Shown: one piece after another, positions 16,225-27,686 of the stretch | How positions within the stretch are numbered: position 1 is the first letter of the stretch | Layout of the letters: every line of letters begins with the position of its first letter | NCBI GenBank assembly: GCA_964428555.1 | Contig: CAYRYS010000002.1 | Span: forward strand, 1,086 to 65,085 | DNA length: 64,000 nucleotides | Direction: 5' to 3' | Source of the DNA: an uncultured Spirochaetales bacterium | GTDB lineage: Bacteria; Spirochaetota; Spirochaetia; CAYRYS01 | Notes under the pieces: model-generated | Databases searched by the model: none | What the model was told of the DNA's origin: nothing | Seen by the model: only the letters and a program-made list of their open reading frames with translations | Position numbers and translations under genes: made by a program

Positions 16225-16563
16225 TTATTTCAAAAGGAATACTCCGGAAGTGATGAGCAGAACTGCGATAAACCTTTGAAGCGTAAAATTCTCACCAAGA
16301 AGACCTACTGCAAGAAGAAAGGTGATTACATATCCGAGACTGGTAAATGGTCGGGCATAGCTCAGGTCAAAGTACTTGAGTACTGTCATCCATAGAATGA
16401 AACTGACTCCATAACAAAAAAAACCGGCAATTACACCCCAGGACTGCAGTAAGGAAAGATAAAATTCGAACCCTTCTTGTGGTATTCTGTTTATTCCGTA
16501 CTTAAAAAAGAACTGACCGAAAGCTCCGAGAGCGACAGACGAGAATAGCAGGAGGTATCCCAC
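16225..16563 (-). CDS. SMR/EamA-half four-TM protein, ArnE/ArnF-like lipid-linked sugar flippase candidate
   Basis: The 112-aa product has 4 TM helices. The pattern SSVALGAFGQFFFKYG ... YARPFTSLGYVITFLLAVGLLGENFT...ITSGVFLL parallels E. coli ArnE as I remember it. Confidence 0.6.
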   Translation of the reverse strand: MGYLLLFSSVALGAFGQFFFKYGINRIPQEGFEFYLSLLQSWGVIAGFFCYGVSFILWMTVLKYFDLSYARPFTSLGYVITFLLAVGLLGENFTLQRFIAVLLITSGVFLLK

Positions 16564-16564
16564 G

Positions 16565-16963
16565 TTAGACCTCTTTTTTTATGAAGACAAAGCGTTTGTC
16601 AAGAAAATACTTTGTAATATATCCAATGGTAAGTCCCAGGGCTCCGCCGATATATTTTGCATAGTCAGTTTGAAAGATAAAATGTGCGCTGAGTTCTGAA
16701 AACCAGAAAATTAATGTAGTAAACACACCCATGAATGAGTAGAGGAAAAACCTGGAGACATTTTCCGCATGTCCTGAAGTCTTATAGTAAAAAATAAAAC
16801 GCTTGTCTAACATGTATTTAACTATCAGTCCTGTTCCTGTTCCTGCAATTATTGCTAGGTATAGTGACAAGCTCCCGGAATAAATGAAAAGAACGGCCTT
16901 TTGCGTGGCTAGGTTGATTCCCATTGCTGTGAGCGCGAAAATTGTATATTTTACTGCAAGCAT
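16565..16963 (-). CDS. GtrA family membrane protein
   Basis: The 132-aa product has 4 TM helices and two copies of the GtrA hallmark (KYMLDKRFIFYYK and KYFLDKRFVF). It lies 1 nt upstream of the ArnE-like gene. Confidence 0.8.
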   Translation of the reverse strand: MLAVKYTIFALTAMGINLATQKAVLFIYSGSLSLYLAIIAGTGTGLIVKYMLDKRFIFYYKTSGHAENVSRFFLYSFMGVFTTLIFWFSELSAHFIFQTDYAKYIGGALGLTIGYITKYFLDKRFVFIKKEV

Positions 16964-16971
16964 ATGTTCTC

Positions 16972-17844
16972 CTATCCTGTAAAAACAAGCAGTCCGATAA
17001 TTGAGAGGGCCCAGAGGATGCAGGTTACTATAATTGATATATCGGTAGTTACCGCGTCAGTAGGATCTTCAATATCCGGATCAGTGAATAGCAAAAGAAT
17101 GTACCGGAAAATACCGTAAATTACAAAAGGAACAGTAAATATAATACTGGAAGTACCGGTCCTGCTGATAACCTCAATATCGATCGAGTACATTGCGTAG
17201 CAGATAATTGTTAATGCAGAAGATATAATAATAAAGATGTTCAAAGTTTCTAGAGAATACTCCTGCAGTACCTTTCTGGTATTGTTTTCTTGAACGTGGG
17301 CCAGCTCGTTTCTTCTTTTTCCGAACCCGAGAAAAAGTGAAAGGCAGAAGGTGGTAAGAAGCATCCAGTTTGAAAGCTGGACTCCAATAGCAAATGTACC
17401 TGCTGTCACTCTAAGCACAAATCCAAGTGCAATAATGATGACATCCAGAATAGGGAAGCTTTTGAGCCATTTAGAATATATAATATTCATTGTTATGTAG
17501 AGACAGATTACAACACCGGTTTGCAAGGTGCTGAATGAAAGCAGCAATACGGTTAAGAGCCCAAGTCCTAGTAAAAGCGCTGCTGCTTGTGTTACTGGAA
17601 CTCTTCCGCTGGCAATAGGCCGGTCCTTTTTCTTCGGGTGCAGTCTGTCCTGGTGTTTATCAAGGATATCATTGAGTATATATACAAATGAAGAGGCAAA
17701 ACAAAACGCAAAGAACGTTGTGGAAAGGTGAACCAGAATTATCTGCTCCACCCGGAGGGTGAAAAGAAATGGTGCAAGCACAAAGGCATTTTTAATCCAA
17801 TGCTTTATCCGAATAAGGGATACTATATCCTGGATTTTCTTCAT
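16972..17844 (-). CDS. UbiA-family prenyltransferase of the decaprenyl-phosphate 5-phosphoribosyltransferase (Rv3806c-like) type
   Basis: The first Asp-rich motif is NDILDKHQDRLHPKKKDRPIASGRV. The H-P-x-K-x-x-R-P-I-A-S-G context is the one I associate with the polyprenyl-phosphate phosphoribosyltransferase subgroup rather than with quinone or haem prenyltransferases. About 8-9 TM helices. Confidence 0.75.
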   Translation of the reverse strand: MKKIQDIVSLIRIKHWIKNAFVLAPFLFTLRVEQIILVHLSTTFFAFCFASSFVYILNDILDKHQDRLHPKKKDRPIASGRVPVTQAAALLLGLGLLTVLLLSFSTLQTGVVICLYITMNIIYSKWLKSFPILDVIIIALGFVLRVTAGTFAIGVQLSNWMLLTTFCLSLFLGFGKRRNELAHVQENNTRKVLQEYSLETLNIFIIISSALTIICYAMYSIDIEVISRTGTSSIIFTVPFVIYGIFRYILLLFTDPDIEDPTDAVTTDISIIVTCILWALSIIGLLVFTG

Positions 17845-17845
17845 A

Positions 17846-18883
17846 TTAAAAGAGTGCCTTTGCTAATTTAAGAATTCCCTGCTTCCATGGAACCCTGTGG
17901 CTCACTCCGCTATTTTGAGAAAAATTATCAAGATTATTTAAGTACCAGCGGTAGTTTCGTAGGAGAGCATCCTTGTTCGAAAACTTTGGGGTGAATCCAA
18001 GTTTTTTCTCTGCCTTTTCTATGTCCACAAAGGAATCTTTAGAAGCTGTTTCATATACCCATTTATAAAGCGGTGAGAGATGAAAGAATTCAAGAACCCG
18101 CAGTGTCCAAATCATTGGTGCTGCTGGAAAGCCTTTAATCTTTCTCCCGAATCCAGCTTCATCCAGTACTGCTTGGTAGTCTTCCTTCATGGTGGTAAAT
18201 TCCTTGGCTCCTATATTAAATGTATCATTGACCCGGTCTGCTTCCAGGGTCATGCACAAATAAATAGATTCGCAGAGGTCTTCAACATCCAGAAACTGAT
18301 ACCTGTTGTCCCCTTTTCCGATCATAGGGAAGTTTTTTCCGTCCTTTGCCCAATCATAAAACAGAGCAAATACTCCAAGCCGTTCTGGGCCGATAAAGGA
18401 TTTCGGTCTGATAATGGGAACGGTCATCCCCTTTTCCCTATATTCAAGACAAACGTTTTCTGCCTGGATCTTTGCTTCACCGTAGGGACCGACACCATCG
18501 AGCTTGTCCGACTCTACCAATGGGTGATGATCCGGTATTCCATATACTGCGGTGCTGGAAATTTGTATTGCCCGTTTGACATTATGCATGAATGCTGCAT
18601 CCATTACATTTCTTGTTCCCTCAATGTCAGTTGAAAAAATATCCTTTTTCGAATACAGAGGGAGCGCAGCTGCAGTATGGATAACAATGTCTGCTCCGTC
18701 CATACATTGGTCTACACAGACCCTGTCACGGATATCCCCTTTTACTGCTTCTATTTCATTCTTTTCCGGGTAATCGAAGTCGACAATGTCGAGAGAGATT
18801 ATATCATTTATTCCTTTTTCTTTGAGGTACCGGATTAGGTTGATTCCCAAAAAACCGCTTCCCCCTGTTATGAGTACGCGCAT
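17846..18883 (-). CDS. NAD-dependent epimerase/dehydratase (extended SDR, GalE-like)
   Basis: MRVLITGGSGFLG Rossmann motif and the YGEAK catalytic Tyr-x3-Lys. A GGAG SD lies 6 nt before the ATG at 18883. The ORF track starts two codons earlier at a GTG. Confidence 0.85.
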   Translation of the reverse strand: MRVLITGGSGFLGINLIRYLKEKGINDIISLDIVDFDYPEKNEIEAVKGDIRDRVCVDQCMDGADIVIHTAAALPLYSKKDIFSTDIEGTRNVMDAAFMHNVKRAIQISSTAVYGIPDHHPLVESDKLDGVGPYGEAKIQAENVCLEYREKGMTVPIIRPKSFIGPERLGVFALFYDWAKDGKNFPMIGKGDNRYQFLDVEDLCESIYLCMTLEADRVNDTFNIGAKEFTTMKEDYQAVLDEAGFGRKIKGFPAAPMIWTLRVLEFFHLSPLYKWVYETASKDSFVDIEKAEKKLGFTPKFSNKDALLRNYRWYLNNLDNFSQNSGVSHRVPWKQGILKLAKALF

Positions 18884-18931
18884 GGACACTCCTATGGATT
18901 TGAGTATGGAATTATTACAAATCTTTTTATT

Positions 18932-18983: not shown

Positions 18984-20618
18984 CTATTTATTATAGGGAT
19001 TAATGATAATAGCCTGGGTCCAAGGGTCTTTCTCTTTCAGCCGTGTTTTTTTTGCCTTATAGCTGGGGTGTGTCTGGATAGCAATCTGTTTTTGTTCAGG
19101 TAGATAATTGTAAAAGTCTCTAGTAAAACATATTTCTCCAGTGTTAGCAATGTTGCACATTCTGGAAGCAAAATTTACCGGTTTACCGATTAGGGTATAA
19201 TCTAACCTAGTCTCTTCTCCAATATCACCGATAATGACAGGGCCTGCGTCAATGCCGATACCAATCGGTAAGAGTTTATGTACCCCAAGCCCTGCCTGGA
19301 TATCAATTGCGACATCGTAGGCTTCTGATGCCCTGGATTCAGGGAAGTAGGCCATAATACCGTCTCCCATCACTTTGTTTATTCTGCCGCCTTTTGCCCG
19401 TATGTGCCCTGCAATGTATTCCTGCTGTTGGTTCAACGTCCGTACAATCTCATCCGGAGGTAGTTCTTCACTCCAGCCGGTAAACCCGCGAATATCGGTA
19501 AAGAAAATAATGAGCTTTGCTTTCCTTGCCATTAGCCGTTTTTCAAGGAGCACATCCACGTTCTCTTCATTTCCATACTGCATGGAGTACTGGGCTTTCA
19601 TGAGCTTATTTCTGGCAGAGCTAATCAGTGTGTCAGATCTAACTGTTTTCATTCCGTCCCAGCTGTGGACCTTCTTTCGGGTCATAGGATTAGCTACCCC
19701 AAGTTCATAGCTCTTTCTTGCAACCGAGTCAGTAAGCAGAGAGATTGCTGCTGGGCCGAAATTAATTGCTTGGTTAATTACATCGTCAAAGGTTTCTGCT
19801 TCAACTGGTTCATTTGTCCAGAACTCGAGCCATTGGACAGCGCTTTCGATAATACTTTCAAGGTCTTTATCAGTTGGAGGATGCTGGAGCGTTTTTAGTA
19901 ATTGTCCTGGTTCTGCTTCTTTGAGTATCTCAAGATATTCAGGAACTTGTTCCATAATTATGCCGCCGTGCTGGGGCAGAATATGTTCAATATCCATTGA
20001 TTTTAATTTTGAATAGGCATAATCCACAGGTTCGTGAGAGGCAATGTAGTGGTCTATAAAGCCTTTCATAAGGTGTTTATGTTCTAAAGAGGCGAACAAA
20101 CTCCAATCCTTATTAAAGACAGCAAATAAGTCAGAGGAGAACAGGGTCTTGGTTGTTTTGTCGTAGGTGCCCATTGTTCCAGCAAAATGAAGGTATGGAA
20201 GATGTACAAATTGCAGGGTCCTTCCGGAGGCAAGCTTTAGGGAGTCACCGTCTCCTACCGGCAGAATATTATTACGGAGTCCGTAATAGGGCAGGAAGAT
20301 TGCAGTCCGGGGATGGGCAATAATTGTGCATTCTGGATGGACCAGTGATTCGAGAAAGGGAATAAGTCCGCAGATGTCTGGATCCTGATGATGGGCGATT
20401 ATGTACTTAATCTGGTCTGGTTTTATCAAGCTTTGAATTTTACCGAGGATTAGGTCTCTGAAAAAGGGATGTCCTGGACCCGGGTCTATAAGCACTGCTT
20501 CATTGTTGTCGATAATGAGATATGGGTTGTTTGCAAAGCCTGCTTCGTAGTCAGCAAAGCCTACCCAATAGATGTCTTTGAGAATTTTAACTGCCTGCTG
20601 ATCATCGAGTCTTTTCAT
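18984..20618 (-). CDS. metallo-beta-lactamase-fold (flavodiiron/ODP-like di-metal) sensor domain fused to a class III adenylate/guanylate cyclase
   Basis: The N-terminal ~250 aa has FDP-like ligand-bearing segments IIAHHQDPDICG, TIIAHPRT, FSSDLFA and ILPQHGG. The C-terminal cyclase core has LIIFFTDIRGFTGWSE, KVMGDGIMAYF, IGIGIDAGPVIIGDIG and LIGKPVNFASRM. Confidence 0.8.
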   Translation of the reverse strand: MKRLDDQQAVKILKDIYWVGFADYEAGFANNPYLIIDNNEAVLIDPGPGHPFFRDLILGKIQSLIKPDQIKYIIAHHQDPDICGLIPFLESLVHPECTIIAHPRTAIFLPYYGLRNNILPVGDGDSLKLASGRTLQFVHLPYLHFAGTMGTYDKTTKTLFSSDLFAVFNKDWSLFASLEHKHLMKGFIDHYIASHEPVDYAYSKLKSMDIEHILPQHGGIIMEQVPEYLEILKEAEPGQLLKTLQHPPTDKDLESIIESAVQWLEFWTNEPVEAETFDDVINQAINFGPAAISLLTDSVARKSYELGVANPMTRKKVHSWDGMKTVRSDTLISSARNKLMKAQYSMQYGNEENVDVLLEKRLMARKAKLIIFFTDIRGFTGWSEELPPDEIVRTLNQQQEYIAGHIRAKGGRINKVMGDGIMAYFPESRASEAYDVAIDIQAGLGVHKLLPIGIGIDAGPVIIGDIGEETRLDYTLIGKPVNFASRMCNIANTGEICFTRDFYNYLPEQKQIAIQTHPSYKAKKTRLKEKDPWTQAIIINPYNK

Positions 20619-20882
20619 ATTCTGCCTACATAATAGAGTATATATATAACCTATAGAAATACTATAAGAAAAATGAAAGAAACCAAATGAATCTTCTTAT
20701 TATTTTCCTTGCATTTTTCCATTAAGCAATATAAAGTTTTATAGTAGACAGAATAGTGTTTGCCGGTATTTCCATTAGTAGTCTGCTCTCCGTCTAAACA
20801 GGGTAGAGAATGGGTATGCAAAGCTGACTCTGTATTGTGTTATTATCTCCAGCAGCGGTTTTTTCTAATATTGGAAGTGTAA

Positions 20883-22583
20883 ATGGGAAATTTAATTGAT
20901 AAGTATTTAGGGAAAAAAGTTAAAGGCGCACGGGTCGTACCTCTTACTACAAAAATTATTATATTATTTGTAATATTTATCCTGGTGTCTAATTTTGCCT
21001 CCAACTATATTAACCTTATGCTCAACCGCGGTGAACTCTTGAAGCTTATGAACCGTCTTCTTGTAAAAGACTTGAAGGAAATGTATGGATTTGCGAATAA
21101 TCAGTATGAGATTTATCAGTATTCTCAGGATTTTGAGGAAGCGGTTAGCACTGTAGAAGAAAACGCACTTCTTGAAATGCGCGGAGAGCGCTCTGTTGGT
21201 TTAGGGATCCGTCCTGACGGCACCTATCTCTTTTTTGCATCTCCTTTGGAAAGAAGGGAAACTTTTACTGATGAAAATGCCCTCCAGAGAATGAACGAAG
21301 CCTTGGAAGAGGATTTGACGGAAAACAGCATTACCTTTATGCTGAATGGAGATCAGTATTTCGGTGTGTATAAATATAACCCCAGCTGGGACGTGTTTCT
21401 CCTCAGGGCTGAAGAGCTTAATGAGTTCTATGCTGAATCCTGGGCAATATTTAGAAATATTTCTTTGTTAATTATCCTTATTGCTCTTGTTTGTACTGCT
21501 TTAGGTACCTATATCATCAGGTATAATCTTCGTTTTGTTCACATTATTACTCATAAGATAATGGAGATGCATGAGAAACAGCATATTGATATTATCGATC
21601 TTTCCCATGCGCCAAATGATGAGGTCACGTATCTCGGTGCTTCCTTTAATGCGCTCTCTAGTACAATTAATAACTTAATGCGCATATTCCGGAAGTTTGT
21701 TGCGAAAGATGTTGCTCAACGGGCGTACAAAGAGCTGGAAATCCGTCTGGAGGGTGAGCCGAGAGACTTAGCGATTCTTTTCAGCGATATTAAGAGTTTC
21801 ACCTTTATTACAGAAACACTGGGAACTGATATCATAAAACTATTGAATATCCATTATCAGCGCGCGATCCACCGTGTTCACGATCACCATGGGGTAATCG
21901 GTTCAATTATTGGAGATGCCCTGCTCGCTGTATTCGGGACCTTTCATGAGAACACGGAGAATAAATCATTAAAATCTGTTTTAGCAGCTTATGAGATTCA
22001 GGCAGTGACTGCACAGTTGAGAAAAGAGATGAATGAACGGAGAGAAGAGGTTATTCGTGTTAAAGGTGGACTGACAAAGATTGAGGAACAAATATATAAG
22101 GCAGTGCTTCTTGAGGTTGGAGTAGGAATTGACGGAGGAGAGGTGTTTTACGGAAATATCGGGTCTACTGAGCGTATGACAAATACAGTCATCGGAGACA
22201 ATGTAAACTCTGCCTCAAGATTGGAAGGATTAACCAGAATTTATAAAGTGCCTGTTATCTGTTCGGAATATATAAAAAATGAAGTTCAAAAGGATATTGA
22301 CGATTTTTATTTTCTTGAGCTCGATACTGTCCAGGTAAAGGGAAAAACAATTGGAAAAAAAGTGTACTGGCCTGTAAGGAAAGAGTTTATTGATGCTGAT
22401 TTACAGAAAGATTTAGAGATTTTCCAATCTGCATTGGAGAAGTATTATGAAGGAGAATGGGAAAAAGCATACGAGATGTTCTCCTCTTGTAACTTGCCCC
22501 TTTCTGAAGTATTTGAAATGAGGACGAGAAATAGAGAATGTCCTGAAAACTGGAATGGTATATGGACAATGAAGACAAAGTAA
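20883..22583 (+). CDS. membrane-bound class III adenylate/guanylate cyclase (TM - extracytoplasmic domain - TM - HAMP - cyclase - C-terminal helical repeat)
   Basis: Two TM helices flank a ~170-aa external region. HAMP-like segment PNDEVTYLGASFNALSSTINNL. Cyclase motifs LAILFSDIKSFTFITE, GSIIGDALLAVFG, VGVGIDGGEVFYGNIGS and VIGDNVNSASRLEG. Confidence 0.8.
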   Translation: MGNLIDKYLGKKVKGARVVPLTTKIIILFVIFILVSNFASNYINLMLNRGELLKLMNRLLVKDLKEMYGFANNQYEIYQYSQDFEEAVSTVEENALLEMRGERSVGLGIRPDGTYLFFASPLERRETFTDENALQRMNEALEEDLTENSITFMLNGDQYFGVYKYNPSWDVFLLRAEELNEFYAESWAIFRNISLLIILIALVCTALGTYIIRYNLRFVHIITHKIMEMHEKQHIDIIDLSHAPNDEVTYLGASFNALSSTINNLMRIFRKFVAKDVAQRAYKELEIRLEGEPRDLAILFSDIKSFTFITETLGTDIIKLLNIHYQRAIHRVHDHHGVIGSIIGDALLAVFGTFHENTENKSLKSVLAAYEIQAVTAQLRKEMNERREEVIRVKGGLTKIEEQIYKAVLLEVGVGIDGGEVFYGNIGSTERMTNTVIGDNVNSASRLEGLTRIYKVPVICSEYIKNEVQKDIDDFYFLELDTVQVKGKTIGKKVYWPVRKEFIDADLQKDLEIFQSALEKYYEGEWEKAYEMFSSCNLPLSEVFEMRTRNRECPENWNGIWTMKTK

Positions 22584-23983
22584 AAGAACTAGTTATTCAA
22601 AGTAAGAACACTTTTCTCCGCTCTGCTGATCTTGGAGATCGGGGAATAAGTGGATTATATGATCTGGAGACTGAGTTTGCGAAGACAAAGAAAAACAGAA
22701 ATCCTATCATCGGGTTGATTGTCTTTCTCTTTATCGCGGTATTTGCAGTCAGTGCAGTAATTGTTACAAATTATATCCAAGCCAGAAGTACGGAGATCCC
22801 CATTGATATTGCGGATTTTCAGAGTGTAAATCTTAATGAGCTATTGGATACTGTACAGAAAACTGAGAACGACCTCAGGGTGCTGCGTAGAGAGCTGGTT
22901 ACAGTCAATAGGAGAATGGAACAGGAAATTCAGCAGATTAGGTCAGATTACGAAAGACAGCTTCAGATATTAAGCACTCAGCGGATTTCAGAGCAAGAAA
23001 GGCAGCGCCGTGCACAGGCCCTTGCTGATGAGCGTGATGCTGAAATAGAACAGACTCGGGAAAACTATTCAGGACCTATAACTGAATTGGAAACAGAGAT
23101 AGCTGCACTTGAAGACCAAGTATCAGCTTTTGATACCAGGCAGCTTGAAATGGCCAGAGAGCAGGAAGAGGTCCTAAGTAATGAGCGCAGACTGTTTGAG
23201 ATAGAGCGCCAGCAGCTTGTTGAAGATTATGAAGAACAGATAGATGAGTTGACAGAAGAGTACGAGAGGGAGATTGTAAGACTCGAAGAGCACAGACAAG
23301 AGCTGCTCGAAGAGACAAGGGAAAATTATCAGCAAGAGCTCCAGGAAGCTTTCCAATTGTATAATCCGGTTTTTTCGGAAGATGATGTTCTTTCCGTCAT
23401 AAACCAAGCCCTGTCTGAAGAAATAGATGAGTCAGGTATCCTTCATGGTTACCGCCAAGTACTTGCTGACAGAGACGTTATTTCCAATGAGGAATTTACC
23501 CAGCTGCGCAGCAGTATCGGAGAACTGCAGACTGTGCTCGACCGTTTGCGGGAAATACCCTATCAGAACAGCGTTCCAAGAGCCTTGAATAGTCTCGAAC
23601 AAATAGGGTTACGGATAGTTCGAGATTATGAAGACCTATGGCACAATGTTGCTCTCTTAGCAGAAGATAGAATTGCACGCTCTAATTACCTATATACTCA
23701 GCTAACTAGAGTTACCTATGCAATGGATTATCTTATTAGGGAAAGCGGTGAAAACGGCTATATTATTGATCCTAGAGACCAGTCCAATATTCTGGTTTAT
23801 ACAAATCAAATATTGAACCTTGAGACTGGCGATACCGGATACGTCTTTCGAAGCGACGATCAGTTTATTGCGACCATTGAATTCTTTTATCGGAATAATC
23901 AGGTCCGCGCCCGTGTTGAGGAGCTTGCAAATCAAGAAGAGCCGATTCGGCCGTTTGACATTATTCTGGTGGATGTGCAGTAG
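22562..23983 (+). CDS. membrane-anchored coiled-coil protein (hypothetical)
   Basis: It overlaps the cyclase gene by 22 nt. A single TM (IIGLIVFLFIAVFAVSAVIV) is followed by about 230 aa of E/Q/R-rich heptad-like sequence and a C-terminal beta-rich domain. Confidence 0.6.
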   Translation: MDNEDKVKELVIQSKNTFLRSADLGDRGISGLYDLETEFAKTKKNRNPIIGLIVFLFIAVFAVSAVIVTNYIQARSTEIPIDIADFQSVNLNELLDTVQKTENDLRVLRRELVTVNRRMEQEIQQIRSDYERQLQILSTQRISEQERQRRAQALADERDAEIEQTRENYSGPITELETEIAALEDQVSAFDTRQLEMAREQEEVLSNERRLFEIERQQLVEDYEEQIDELTEEYEREIVRLEEHRQELLEETRENYQQELQEAFQLYNPVFSEDDVLSVINQALSEEIDESGILHGYRQVLADRDVISNEEFTQLRSSIGELQTVLDRLREIPYQNSVPRALNSLEQIGLRIVRDYEDLWHNVALLAEDRIARSNYLYTQLTRVTYAMDYLIRESGENGYIIDPRDQSNILVYTNQILNLETGDTGYVFRSDDQFIATIEFFYRNNQVRARVEELANQEEPIRPFDIILVDVQ

Positions 23984-23992
23984 GAGAGTTGT

Positions 23993-24931
23993 ATGAAAAA
24001 AATATTGGTTATAATCCTTTTTACATTTATTTGCCTGTCTTTTGCTTTTGGGGCGGATTTTTCTTCAACTGCATGGAATGTTACTGAGGCAGGCACACAA
24101 GGGGGAGCTCAGCTTTATTCGGCAGAGAACAGCAGTGGACAGACCTTTAGGATAGCCAGCTACATTACTATCACCGATCAGATGGCACAAAACATTGCAT
24201 CAGCTGCTCAACGTTTTTACAACTGGCAGTATCTGGAAATAGACTCAATGAGCTTCGTTGTTTCAGAGCAGAACATTGAATTGAACATTGTGCCTGAAAG
24301 TTTTGTCTATAATTCAGCAGATCTATCTGAATACATGCCTTCAGGCATGCTTTTTTATATTGGTAATGAAATACTCTACAATTTCAGAATGCTTGCAAAT
24401 AACCTGTTTGTAAGGATGCGTGGCCAGCTGTACAATGAAACCCAGCTCTGTGAAAAAATACTTCGTGCTGTTAATAATCCGGTCGCCTTCATTCAAACCT
24501 ATGATCCTGAGTATATACAGACGAATTTTAGTGCGGTGTATGATGAGATTACTGCTCTCGAACAGACAGCTTTAGCACTAGCTGAAGAGACAGAATCCGG
24601 TGATGCAGTGCTCGCAGAATCTGTAGCTGAACTATTTGCACAGATTGCAGAACTTTCTGAGAGCCTATCTACTTTAAACTCGTCCCTTTCAGATCTTACA
24701 GAGCAGTTTCAAACACTTCGCCTTTCCGTTCTTTCTTTTGAAAACCGCGGGTTTTTCGGAGGGATTAATCAGGTTGATCCGAATGTTGTAGCTCAAATTG
24801 TTCAAATAAAACAGGATAATCCAGAGTTTACTATTAGCGATGTACAGGCTCGGTTGAGTGAGCAAGAGGTGAGTGTGTCTGTTAATGTAATAAGAAATGT
24901 ATTCGGCGCGTATTTTAATGAATTTGAATAA
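23993..24931 (+). CDS. secreted hypothetical protein
   Basis: AGGAGAG SD. Signal peptide MKKILVIILFTFICLSFAFG/ADF. The C-terminal third looks like coiled coil (ALAEETESGDAVLAESVAELFAQIAELSESLSTLNSSLSDLTEQFQTL). Confidence 0.6.
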   Translation: MKKILVIILFTFICLSFAFGADFSSTAWNVTEAGTQGGAQLYSAENSSGQTFRIASYITITDQMAQNIASAAQRFYNWQYLEIDSMSFVVSEQNIELNIVPESFVYNSADLSEYMPSGMLFYIGNEILYNFRMLANNLFVRMRGQLYNETQLCEKILRAVNNPVAFIQTYDPEYIQTNFSAVYDEITALEQTALALAEETESGDAVLAESVAELFAQIAELSESLSTLNSSLSDLTEQFQTLRLSVLSFENRGFFGGINQVDPNVVAQIVQIKQDNPEFTISDVQARLSEQEVSVSVNVIRNVFGAYFNEFE

Positions 24932-25031
24932 AATAAATAATTCAAGGACTACAACATTCCTGTAAACTTCTCTATAATGAAAAGCAAGCAATAGTATTAC
25001 TAAGTATAGCGCGCTATAGAGGTCAATAATT

Positions 25032-27686
25032 ATGATATCGCCAATTTTTGGAACAGCCTTGTTTACTATTATGCTGATAATTTCCATATTCTGTTTTATT
25101 GGATATTTGTTTAGGAAGAAGAATAAATCTGCCCTTTTGTTATCAGTAATGGCTTTCCTTGTTGGGCTGAGAGTTTTCTTTTCTTCTACCGTTGGGTTGA
25201 TACGTCTCATTCCCTCTGCTCCGGTTTTACTTACTGTATTAACCCCGCATATCATCACATTGGCCATTATTTCTGTTTCACTTCTTTATATGCAGATACG
25301 GATGAGTCAACCTGTAAAAAGAACAATGAAAATAGCATTTAGTACAATTTGGCTTCCTTGTGCTGTTTTACTCTTTGTGCTTATACCGAACCAGTCCTTT
25401 TGGGCTTTTAGTGTTTTTGCTTTATTTGCAGGGCTCGCCTTTATTTATCAGGCTGCAAGTTTTTACCAATATCTACAAGACTGGAGTTTGTATTCTGTAA
25501 GCGCAGCTGTGTCTGCATTTTTATTATGGGTAGCTGTAGTACATGAGGTTCTTGTATTTTTCGGTGTACTGGGGATTCCGGCTTTTAGCGAGTTCATATA
25601 CAGTCTTTTTTGTGTTTTAGAAGCATTGGTCATATTGCTGATGCTTATTCAGGATTATGCGAAGGCAGAGCGTTCCTCAGAGCAGGAAGCTACTCATGAG
25701 AAGCTTAGTGAAGAAATTCTGCTAAATGCAGTAGCCGAGGCTTTGGTGCCGGTTGATGGGGTCTTGGGTATAACCGAATCCATGATTCATGAACAGAATC
25801 TTAAGAAAATCAATGATTCAGCACTACCGATAGTATTTACCTCTCAGATGCGGCTTAAATACATGCTTTATAATATTAGGGATTATTTGCATATTCAATC
25901 CCAGCCATTGGAGCTGCAAAAGGATGCGGTTAAGATAGATGAGGTGATTGATTTCTGTATGGAAATAATGAAGCCGTATTTGGATAGTAAGTCTATCACT
26001 ATTGAATATACTGCAGAAGACAAACTGCCTGTGCTGTACCTTGATGAAGATCGGATTACTCAGGTATTTATTAACTTGTTTAATGTAATATCCAGGAATG
26101 TTGAGTCTGCTGCTGTTACACTCTCAATTCAACAGGGAAAGGAGTCTGTGGATGTAGCATTATCCGGAAACCTACCGGAAGTCCTATATTCCGAGGGTGA
26201 AATCTATCTAGCATTTCAACATGACTTAGGAAATGTAACTCATCCTACTGCAGGAACCGGGATAGAGGCTATAATGGTCAAACTTTTGACAGAACAGCTT
26301 GGAGGCGCAGTGAAAATGCGCTCTAAGACTGATACATACTCAGTTTATGAGCTTACGTTTCCTCTTTCAGAGATAGGAACAATAGAAGCAAGGCACTCTG
26401 ATCTTGCTCTGCATAGAGAAACGCTTCAACAGGAAGTCACAGCTTTAGAGCCGATTATTGATACTGACAAGTTTAAACTTTTAGTCGTTGACGATGATCC
26501 GGTATCGTTACAGGTAATGAAAAATTACCTTCTTAACGAAGACTATGTTGTTGACTCGACCGGTACTGGTGAGGGAGCTCTTGCAATAATTGAGTCAAGC
26601 GATCCTCCGGACCTGCTGCTTTTAGATATAATGATGCCGAAGATGAGCGGTTTAGAGGTGTGTGAGCGGGTTAGAAAAAAGTATTCCACCAGTGAGCTTC
26701 CGATTATTCTTACAACAGCTAAGAGCAAAGTTGCTGACATGGCTGAAGGACTCATTCGGGGTGCGAATGATTATCTGGCAAAGCCGTTTACCAGAGATGA
26801 ATTAGTACGAAGAGTAAGAACACATTTAGAATTGTCCAAACTGAACACGATATACGGCAGGTTTATTCCAAAGGAATTTCTCCGTTTCCTTGGGCATGAC
26901 AATATTGTTGATATTTCACTGGGTGAACAGGTTCAGAAAGAGATGACAATCTTATTTGTTGATATTCGTTCCTTTACTTCCTTGTCCGAGAACATGTCGC
27001 CGCAAGAGAATTTTAAATTCATTAATTCATATCTAAGCAGGATTAGCCCGATTATTAAGGAGCACAATGGGTTTATTGATAAGTACATAGGCGATTCAAT
27101 TATGGCGCTTTTCCCGTTCAGGCCTGAAGACGCTATAGATACAGCTGTTGAAATGATAAAGCATGTGACTGTCTATAATCAGCATAGACACAACTCCGGA
27201 TATGTACCTATTAAGATTGGTATTGGTATCCATACCGGAAAGCTGATTCTCGGAATTATTGGGGACAAACAGAGAATGGAAGGGACTGTTATCTCAGATG
27301 CAGTTAACCTCGCTTCCAGAGTACAGGACCTGACAAAGCTCTATGGTGCTAATATTCTTATAAGTCAGGATACTTTCATACGCCTAGACAACCCTACTGA
27401 TTATTTTTTCCGATTCCTTGGAAGGGTAAAAGTAAAAGGAAAAGAAAAAACAGTCTCTGTGTTTGAAATATTTAATGGAGAGGAAGATAAAATAGTAACG
27501 AAAAAGAATAATACCAAAAATGAATTTGAAACTGCAATTATCAGGTTTGCAAAACGGAATTTTGATGAGGCGAGGGAGATTTTTTCTGGTATTGTAAAGA
27601 AATGTCCCCAAGACCGGGCTGCACAGCTATTTTTGCAGAAAATAAAAAAATATTCGAAGAGTGAAGGTGCAGATACACAATTATAA
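25032..27686 (+). CDS. multi-TM sensor - degenerate histidine-kinase module - receiver - class III cyclase - TPR-like tail
   Basis: About 6-7 N-terminal TM helices. The kinase-like region lacks the phospho-His (AEALVPVDGVLGITESM where an H-box is expected) and has eroded N/G1 boxes (NLFNVISRNV, LSGNLPEV). The receiver is intact (LLVVDDDP...LLLLDIMMPKMSG, Asp532...YLAKPF). Cyclase motifs are TILFVDIRSFTSLSE, KYIGDSIMALF, IGIGIHTGKLILGIIG and VISDAVNLASRVQ. Confidence 0.8.
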   Translation: MISPIFGTALFTIMLIISIFCFIGYLFRKKNKSALLLSVMAFLVGLRVFFSSTVGLIRLIPSAPVLLTVLTPHIITLAIISVSLLYMQIRMSQPVKRTMKIAFSTIWLPCAVLLFVLIPNQSFWAFSVFALFAGLAFIYQAASFYQYLQDWSLYSVSAAVSAFLLWVAVVHEVLVFFGVLGIPAFSEFIYSLFCVLEALVILLMLIQDYAKAERSSEQEATHEKLSEEILLNAVAEALVPVDGVLGITESMIHEQNLKKINDSALPIVFTSQMRLKYMLYNIRDYLHIQSQPLELQKDAVKIDEVIDFCMEIMKPYLDSKSITIEYTAEDKLPVLYLDEDRITQVFINLFNVISRNVESAAVTLSIQQGKESVDVALSGNLPEVLYSEGEIYLAFQHDLGNVTHPTAGTGIEAIMVKLLTEQLGGAVKMRSKTDTYSVYELTFPLSEIGTIEARHSDLALHRETLQQEVTALEPIIDTDKFKLLVVDDDPVSLQVMKNYLLNEDYVVDSTGTGEGALAIIESSDPPDLLLLDIMMPKMSGLEVCERVRKKYSTSELPIILTTAKSKVADMAEGLIRGANDYLAKPFTRDELVRRVRTHLELSKLNTIYGRFIPKEFLRFLGHDNIVDISLGEQVQKEMTILFVDIRSFTSLSENMSPQENFKFINSYLSRISPIIKEHNGFIDKYIGDSIMALFPFRPEDAIDTAVEMIKHVTVYNQHRHNSGYVPIKIGIGIHTGKLILGIIGDKQRMEGTVISDAVNLASRVQDLTKLYGANILISQDTFIRLDNPTDYFFRFLGRVKVKGKEKTVSVFEIFNGEEDKIVTKKNNTKNEFETAIIRFAKRNFDEAREIFSGIVKKCPQDRAAQLFLQKIKKYSKSEGADTQL

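Follow-up and report, generated by a model that had tools for sequence, protein, structure and literature searches.

An ODP-family di-iron sensor domain joined to a class IIIb cyclase in an uncultured spirochaete: a predicted oxygen- or iron-regulated adenylate cyclase

Whether the availability of oxygen or iron can be turned into a cyclic AMP (cAMP) signal by a single soluble polypeptide is a question raised by one gene of an uncultured Spirochaetales bacterium. The window, by which is meant the whole stretch of DNA that was analysed, comprises 64,000 nucleotides (GenBank assembly GCA_964428555.1, contig CAYRYS010000002.1, positions 1,086 to 65,085 of the forward strand), and the gene in question is complete within it, running on the minus strand from an ATG at 20616-20618 to a TAG at 18984-18986 (18984-20618) and encoding a protein of 544 amino acids whose first residues, MKRLDD, agree with the N-termini of its relatives. 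A first-pass annotation, made from the sequence without database searches, had proposed that the sensor fold of the flavodiiron proteins (FDPs) and of the oxygen-binding di-iron proteins (ODPs) is here joined directly to a second-messenger enzyme, and this proposal was borne out, in that an ODP domain and a class IIIb cyclase are carried on one chain. A Pfam scan of the protein found two domains, ODP (PF19583) and Guanylate_cyc (PF00211), both with scores that chance would not produce, and no others, confirming the claimed absence of a flavodoxin domain; the motif strings on which the proposal had been built are likewise all present, those of the sensor at residues 75-81 (AHHQDPD), 100-105 (IAHPRT), 161-165 (SSDLF) and 215-219 (PQHGG), and those of the cyclase at 373-380 (FTDIRGFT), 417-425 (MGDGIMAYF) and 482-487 (NFASRM). 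The answer favoured below is that the protein is probably an adenylate cyclase regulated by O2, Fe(II) or both.

The N-terminal 235 residues (19914-20618, minus strand, as are all features of the gene given below) are a genuine ODP domain, as its profile score, its fold, its ligand signature and its place in the tree all indicate. The Pfam ODP model matches residues 29-218 (nucleotides 19965-20534) over profile positions 2-194 of 194, with an E-value of 9.9e-53 and 179.3 bits against a cut-off of 27.2. When the Protein Data Bank (PDB) was searched with phmmer, crystallised ODPs ranked first (6qrq/6qwo, 1.8e-25; 6qnm/6r9n, 4.3e-22), with the FDPs trailing at 4e-13 and weaker, and identity of the sensor domain to the crystallised ODPs is 26-29%. 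An AlphaFold2 (AF2) monomer model of the 544-residue protein, built from 32 family sequences, has a mean pLDDT (predicted local distance difference test) of 84.5, with most of the ODP domain at 85-98, and the top Foldseek neighbours of the model are the same four entries, 6qrq, 6qwo, 6r9n and 6qnm, at TM-scores of 0.80-0.83 (TMt 0.78-0.83) and root-mean-square deviations of 2.5-3.3 Å over approximately 240 residues. The earlier description of the domain as FDP- or ODP-like is thus sharpened to membership of the ODP family proper.

Seven ligand positions, H77, D79, D81, H144, D163, Q216 and H217, align residue-for-residue with crystallised ODPs. Three of them fall in motif 2, H77-Q-D79-P-D81-I82 (20373-20390), which corresponds to the 'HQDPDV' of ODPs and in which the ligands are followed by Ile. 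H144, the ligand His of 'PYLHFAG' (20187-20189), aligns to 'FLHSTG' or 'FMHSPG' in ODPs and to 'WLHWPD' in FDPs; D163, at the bridging-Asp position in 'FSSDLF' (20130-20132), aligns to ODP 'FSGDI' and FDP 'FSCDV'; and Q216-H217, the ODP-specific Gln and the last His ligand, lie in a 'PQHG' sequence (19968-19973) that reads 'PQHG' in ODPs and 'PGHG' in the FDP of Thermotoga maritima. The suspicion that the fourth position of motif 2 is Ile rather than His proved correct: motif 2 of the T. maritima FDP is H-T-E-P-D-X, X being H90, which reads A, N or D in the mutant entries 4dik, 4dil and 5v8s, and I82 aligns to H90. In ODPs, a Gln at motif 5 stands in for the third His of motif 2 (PMC7785958), so that Q216 would be that ligand and the set would be complete without a motif-2 His. 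Alignment to FDP and ODP structures, which the first-pass annotation had named as the way to check its ligand assignments, therefore yields a putative di-metal ligand set that is complete and of the ODP type, ODP-specific Q216 included, and we infer that the metal is iron, with two irons bound. One assignment had to be moved, since IAHPRT had been counted among the metal-ligand segments on account of H102, a position at which crystallised ODPs carry no His and which varies in the family introduced below (H in 95 of 115 clusters, otherwise P, T, E, D, A or Q); the ligand His that matches the flavodiiron 'HW' motif is H144.

Two related identities were tried for the domain and rejected. A hydrolytic enzyme of the metallo-beta-lactamase (MBL) fold, such as RNase Z, glyoxalase II or a B1-B3 lactamase, is contradicted by the absence of HxHxDH, the motif here being H-Q-D-P-D-I, and the check for grouping with such enzymes placed the domain outside them, the generic Lactamase_B model scoring 34.5 bits as against 179 for the ODP model, and the NCBIfam bla_subclass_B3 model reaching 15 bits against a cut-off of 240. 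A true flavodiiron protein is contradicted by the lack of HxExDH and of flavodoxin, by the scores of the NCBIfam flavorubredoxin equivalog models (43-48 bits against cut-offs of 635-711), and by a 100/100 split in the sensor-domain tree.

The other end of the protein, residues 363-544 (18987-19532), is a class IIIb adenylate cyclase catalytic domain by its Pfam match and its solved relatives. Guanylate_cyc matches residues 366-519 with an E-value of 3.1e-14 and 53.4 bits against a cut-off of 21.9, the domain is modelled at a pLDDT of approximately 87-95, and the nearest solved cyclases, CyaB (3r5g, E = 2e-22), OaPAC, bPAC, Cya2, sAC and CyaC, all belong to class IIIb. The complete class III core that had been claimed for it withstood alignment to CyaB of Pseudomonas aeruginosa, in which D375, K415, D419, T475, N482 and R486 all find counterparts. 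D375, the first metal-binding Asp, lies in FTDIRGFT (19494-19496); K415, the adenine-specifying Lys, and D419, the second metal-binding Asp, delimit a segment (19362-19376) of 'NKVMGDG', aligned to CyaB 'DKFVGDC'; and T475 together with the transition-state pair N482/R486 lies in 'DYTLIGKPVNFASR' (19161-19196), aligned to CyaB 'DYTIIGREVNLASR'. In class III cyclases the second substrate residue is found seven positions before the catalytic Asn (D1018/N1025 in AC2, T1139/N1146 in Spirulina CyaC), and because seven positions before N482 is T475, the protein has the Lys/Thr combination that marks ATP-specific cyclases of class IIIb. The substrate-specifying residues, left to be determined by the first-pass annotation, are thus of the ATP type, and the cyclase is predicted to be a complete class IIIb enzyme that uses ATP and releases cAMP. 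Cyclic GMP was considered as the product and is unlikely, given a Lys at position 415 in 114 of 115 clusters. Since one chain holds all six catalytic residues, the enzyme should, by the known class III mechanism, act as a homodimer with two symmetric active sites.

Between the two domains lies a connector, residues 236-362 (19533-19913), delimited from the AF2 models. A linker of about 110 residues had been described at this place; that the domains are separated by one is correct, but it is longer, at approximately 127 residues, and it is not plain, being helical in the AF2 model, with helices spanning approximately residues 250-268, 277-285, 289-306 and 329-344, a conserved turn, 'GVANP', at 307-311 and a flexible, low-confidence stretch at 338-362. 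No Pfam family matches the connector, even when E-values up to 10 are admitted, the PDB offers no fold neighbour for it (best E = 2.1), and it does not resemble the linker found in ODP-GGDEF-REC proteins (hhalign probability 0.4%); it appears to be specific to the family to which the protein belongs.

That family is real but small. Approximately 115 clusters at 90% identity, found by a word-indexed search, share the ODP and Guanylate_cyc architecture in proteins of 540-580 residues that are 36-52% identical to the query, and an exhaustive HMMER search of 1.84 billion representatives at 50% identity returned only about seven full-length clusters together with fragments. The source names of the clusters include Spirochaetales, Leptonema, Leptospiraceae, Candidatus Treponema faecavium, Candidatus Abyssubacteria, Anaerolineales and Victivallales, a spread that reaches beyond Spirochaetota into other phyla, and full-length fusions occur in four of 401 sampled genomes of the window's phylum and in one of 40 class-level relatives. 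A pattern scan of species genomes, which gave mostly cyclase-only matches and a single full-length one, in a Leptospiraceae metagenome-assembled genome (L001), is uninformative for distribution. The patchiness suggests horizontal spread.

Across all 115 clusters, the sensor ligands and the catalytic residues are both under purifying conservation. All seven ligands, H-D-D-H-D-Q-H, are kept in 106 clusters, with H77 in 111, D79 in 107, D81 in 111, His at 144 and Asp at 163 in 108 each, and Q216 and H217 in every one; position 82 is Leu, Ile or Val and never His. The cyclase hexad D-K-D-[T/S]-N-R is kept in 113 clusters (D375 in 114, K415 in 114, D419, N482 and R486 in all 115, and position 475 as Thr in 109 and Ser in six).

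The evolutionary origin of the sensor can be read from its own domain tree, in which the FDPs are separated from ODPs and ODP fusions by the 100/100 branch cited above. The ODP domains of the 544-residue fusions form one clade, supported at 96/92 and 84/90 in the two samplings, showing a single origin of this fusion; P0117, a member whose cyclase is degenerate, nests within it. The nearest outgroups of the clade are stand-alone ODPs, among them P0126, which is 48% identical and is encoded 12 nucleotides behind the gene of a NIT-HAMP-MCP (methyl-accepting chemotaxis protein) chemoreceptor (L111:1623-5006). The sensor of the fusion thus descends from chemotaxis-type ODP sensors. The chemoreceptor beside P0126 has a sensor domain of its own, and the published pairing is with sensor-less receptors; a 95-residue open reading frame overlaps the end of P0126, and an AhpC/Redoxin gene follows 38 nucleotides further downstream on the opposite strand.

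ODP is also fused to other outputs, outside this one family. The other-sized ODP proteins that were sampled carry GGDEF-REC, GGDEF, REC, a histidine-kinase ATPase domain, SpoIIE or PAS-GGDEF-EAL. A further protein, P0143 (789 residues), has a second ODP-class III cyclase architecture, with ODP at residues 35-226 and cyclase at 489-664; its sensor domain belongs to a different ODP clade (98/98), together with ODP-GGDEF, histidine-kinase and SpoIIE fusions and not with the 544-residue family, so that fusion of ODP with a class III cyclase has arisen independently two or more times.

How might such a protein work? The reading to which we give the greatest weight, at a probability of roughly 0.6, is that the 544-residue protein is an adenylate cyclase under the control of O2, Fe(II) or both. 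It would be a soluble one-component enzyme in which the seven ligands of the ODP domain hold a non-haem di-iron centre. The state of that centre, whether apo, diferrous or O2-bound peroxo-diferric, would report the availability of oxygen and Fe(II); a change of state would shift the conformation or subunit association of the ODP domain, the helical connector of about 127 residues would relay the shift to the cyclase dimer, and the class IIIb homodimer would make cAMP from ATP at sites specified by Lys415 and Thr475, to be read by the many cyclic-nucleotide (cNMP)-binding proteins of the same genome. That O2 and Fe(II) are what the centre reads is proposed by analogy with the characterised ODPs of Treponema denticola and T. 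maritima, and the state of ODP reportedly changes with metal and O2.

Several features of the locus fit this proposal. No conserved neighbourhood or partner gene was found across nine homologue loci, and neither a methyl-accepting chemotaxis protein gene nor a che gene stands next to the ODP-cyclase gene in the window or at any of the nine; the absence of conserved neighbours points to a self-contained, one-component system. The genome (3.5 Mb, 97.6% complete) holds 24 matches to cNMP-binding domains, and thus many potential readers of cAMP. Lastly, the ODP-cyclase sequence was found, among DNA runs, only in metagenomes of microbial mats; mats are environments with steep O2 gradients, and such an origin fits the sensing of O2.

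Other features count against the proposal. Di-iron sites of the MBL-like fold also react with nitric oxide (NO) and H2O2. No known transducer element, be it an S-helix, a cyclase-transducer element or a coiled coil, is recognisable in the connector, whose last 25 residues are modelled at low confidence, and the AF2 model is of a monomer, so that a signal path to the cyclase dimer lies beyond such a model. Seven clusters have lost at least two ligands and have kept every catalytic residue of the cyclase intact (P0100, P0102, P0107, P0109, P0110, P0111 and P0113, the last at L109:5001-6647). These include Candidatus Treponema faecavium and one cluster of 119 member sequences, and two of them, P0102 and P0113, are gut-associated; in their sequences TQVRPD is found for HHQDPD, for instance, and IQAS for LHFAG. 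The three ligand-poor members placed in the tree form one long-branched subclade. With its cyclase intact, this subclade implies that the scaffold can persist without metal sensing, and its members may be natural 'signal-blind' variants.

The first of these points leads to the alternative that survives best, though it is an unlikely one, namely that the di-iron ODP domain mainly senses NO, H2O2 or cellular redox state and gates cAMP synthesis in response. The fold and most of the ligands are common to the flavodiiron NO and O2 reductases, and genes for rubrerythrin, methionine-sulfoxide reductase or an AhpC-type peroxiredoxin lie near some homologues or the nearest stand-alone ODP. These oxidative-stress neighbours are sporadic, however, occurring at three of the nine homologue loci, the ligand set is that of ODPs rather than FDPs, and the sole characterised members of the ODP family are described as sensors of O2 and Fe(II).

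A rather improbable alternative would make the ODP domain a pure sensor of metal occupancy (iron, or Zn/Mn) or a mere dimerisation scaffold, with the cyclase regulated by other means, such as CO2 or bicarbonate. The ligand-less subclade with its intact cyclase makes metal-free scaffolds viable, a Zn-bound ODP structure exists (6qwo), and the protein combines the Lys/Thr class IIIb signature with CyaB, sAC and CyaC as its closest solved relatives, all three of which are bicarbonate-responsive. Yet retention of the seven ligands in 106 of 115 clusters, with Q216 and H217 invariant, speaks for selection to maintain a functional metal site in the majority of the family, and the long branch of the ligand-less subclade is what would be expected of relaxed or changed function.

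It is very improbable that the N-terminal domain is itself catalytic, acting as an O2- or NO-scavenging oxidoreductase or as an MBL hydrolase, for example a cNMP phosphodiesterase, within a bifunctional enzyme. Most of the MBL superfamily is catalytic, and the domain does match the generic Lactamase_B model, but there is no flavodoxin or FMN domain or other electron-entry module, the HxHxDH motif of hydrolases is missing, the flavorubredoxin and B3 models fall far under their cut-offs, the Pfam scan gave no PDEase_II match, and the domain is nested in a clade of ODP sensors. An anti-phage cyclase of the Pycsar kind, making a pyrimidine cyclic nucleotide, was rejected as scarcely credible, because the PADLOC PycC models, although they match residues 361-520 with up to 82 bits, recognise nothing beyond the fold that class III cyclases have in common, no effector (a cNMP-binding protein with a transmembrane or TIR domain) is adjacent in the window or at the nine homologue loci, the purine-type Lys/Thr pair is conserved, and the nearest solved structures are those of adenylate and guanylate cyclases.

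If the O2- and/or Fe(II)-regulated adenylate cyclase is accepted as the preferred reading, a bolder version of it can be formulated, of which we are doubtful as a whole. In this version the family would represent a one-component switch in which, for the first time, a non-haem di-iron centre couples oxygen, and also iron, directly to cAMP; formation or loss of the peroxo-diferric state would re-pack the hitherto undescribed connector and so open or close the cyclase dimer. Mat-dwelling anaerobic spirochaetes would thereby obtain a cAMP read-out of the diel change between oxic and anoxic conditions, and the subclade of gut treponemes would be signal-blind. The cyclase is of the CO2/bicarbonate-responsive subclass, and hence the read-out might perhaps also be integrated with inorganic carbon.

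Around the gene, the window holds further signalling genes. Within 8.7 kb (18984-27686) it encodes three class III cyclases, each with its own kind of input domain. The second is a membrane protein of 566 residues, encoded divergently from the ODP-cyclase gene (20883-22583), and the third, of 884 residues with a 7TMR-DISM/histidine kinase-like/REC/cyclase arrangement (25032-27686), lies 4.4 kb from the ODP-cyclase gene; between the second and the third (22562-24931) are two proteins without significant Pfam matches, one of them probably a coiled coil. The 264-bp divergent region upstream of the ODP-cyclase gene has inverted repeats, which are weak and rich in AT, and a scan for promoters and terminators gave matches at chance level. 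Downstream, after a gap of 94 bp, the minus strand encodes (16225-18889) an NAD-dependent epimerase, a UbiA-family prenyltransferase, GtrA and an EamA/SMR-like protein, a cluster that looks like one for lipid-linked sugar modification. No terminator was detected in the 94-bp gap between the ODP-cyclase and epimerase genes, and co-transcription with the cluster is conceivable.

A different arrangement is seen at the locus of P0048, on a 3.25-Mb contig (L100:6001-8345), where the ODP-cyclase gene is followed, with a 4-nucleotide overlap, by the gene of a 221-residue cyclase that has no sensor, and immediately upstream are two cNMP-binding genes, one with a fusion to HD. P0048 and the small cyclase could pair as a heterodimer, and the group of genes could be a local cAMP circuit.

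Elsewhere in its own genome, the 544-residue protein is accompanied by two canonical FDPs (C1:77819-78415, L083, and C61:19639-20217, L084), both with HxExDH and 'SHG' (in the form 'PSHG' or 'TSHG'); one is cut by a contig end, and the complete copy has its flavodoxin part. Their presence indicates that the ODP signature of the 544-residue protein is not drift, and the occurrence of two FDPs beside two ODP-type genes suggests that detoxification of O2 and NO is separate from ODP-type sensing in this organism. The second ODP gene (227 residues) and a gene for a degenerate-GGDEF/REC protein (432 residues) occupy one frame on the minus strand (contig C12, locus L086:6442-8475) that is split by a single TAG (L086:7792-7794). 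Read through, the 677-residue product is collinear with, and 41% identical to, ODP-GGDEF-REC proteins made as a single chain, such as P0119, where the codon corresponding to the TAG encodes Lys. An independent Logan contig, from run X1 at a depth of about 8, carries the same TAG. The gene may be split, it may have acquired a nonsense mutation recently, or the codon may be read through. Directly after this locus stands the gene of a 922-residue HEAT/GT2 polysaccharide synthase.

As to what the fusion means, O2 sensing in anaerobes and microaerophiles relies mostly on haem (globin, PAS and H-NOX), on Fe-S clusters (FNR) and on hemerythrin, and ODP is, to our knowledge, a recently recognised fourth type of O2 sensor that has been studied only as a trans-acting chemotaxis sensor. 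The fusion points to a likely direct link from O2 or iron to cAMP in anaerobic spirochaetes, and, if that link holds, ODP signalling would extend from motility to physiology under the control of cAMP. It would also offer a simpler assay of ODP mechanism, since a single soluble protein with a cAMP read-out would replace a reconstituted array of receptor, CheA and CheW, and the natural ligand-less relatives would serve as ready-made controls; a genetically encoded O2- or iron-to-cAMP converter is a possible use. Members of the family, now labelled 'hypothetical' or 'class 3 adenylate cyclase/glyoxylase-like hydrolase', could be re-annotated as ODP-domain sensor adenylate cyclases.

Against known systems, the protein is best described as a known sensor module to which a class III cyclase output and a new connector have been added, and not as a categorically new system. 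With the characterised ODPs (T. denticola TDE2498 and T. maritima ODP; 6qnm, 6r9n, 6qrq, 6qwo) it shares the fold, the Pfam family, the HQDPD[V/I/L]...H...D...QH signature and the lack of flavodoxin. Whereas an ODP of the T. denticola type acts in trans on a sensor-less chemoreceptor and CheA, the ODP domain here is covalently joined through the 127-residue connector to its cyclase, and the partner chemoreceptor that defines that type is absent beside the gene; the nearest stand-alone relative of the fusion's sensor, like the characterised ODPs, still sits beside a chemoreceptor gene. The FDPs (FprA, ROO, NorV; 1ycf, 1e5d, 4d02, 1vme) share the MBL-like di-iron domain and five common ligand positions, but have H-x-E-x-D-H and a flavodoxin where the 544-residue protein has H-x-D-x-D-I, a motif-5 Gln and no flavodoxin.

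ODPs are stated to occur 'fused with signal transduction domains', namely MCP, Pkinase, START, GGDEF, EAL and HD (TREND 2020, PMC7319448, summarising Muok et al. 2019); the outputs that the accessible literature lists do not include a class III cyclase. The first-pass annotation had supposed this architecture to be uncharacterised; in the literature searched no description of an ODP combined with a class III cyclase was found, and to that extent the supposition stands, but ODP-signalling fusions in general are already in print (Muok et al. 2019, as summarised in PMC7319448). In the other ODP fusions, as here, ODP is a cis-acting N-terminal input with the same ligand signature; they differ in their output, in belonging to a separate clade and, in the case of the ODP-GGDEF-REC proteins, in an unrelated connector.

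On the side of the output, the class IIIb cyclases (CyaB 3r5g, OaPAC/bPAC, Spirulina CyaC and mammalian sAC) have the same core of two metal-binding Asp, Lys/Thr and Asn/Arg, but their inputs are MASE2, BLUF or GAF/PAS domains, whereas here the input is a di-iron ODP domain and no coiled-coil transducer is recognisable. The same logic, an O2-binding metal centre fused to a nucleotide cyclase, is found in Bhr-DGC of Vibrio cholerae (hemerythrin-GGDEF) and in the haem-containing HemAC-Lm of Leishmania. Bhr-DGC is also a non-haem di-iron protein, but its messenger is c-di-GMP, and the sensor folds of the three are unrelated, being a four-helix hemerythrin bundle, a globin and, in the spirochaetal protein, an MBL fold.

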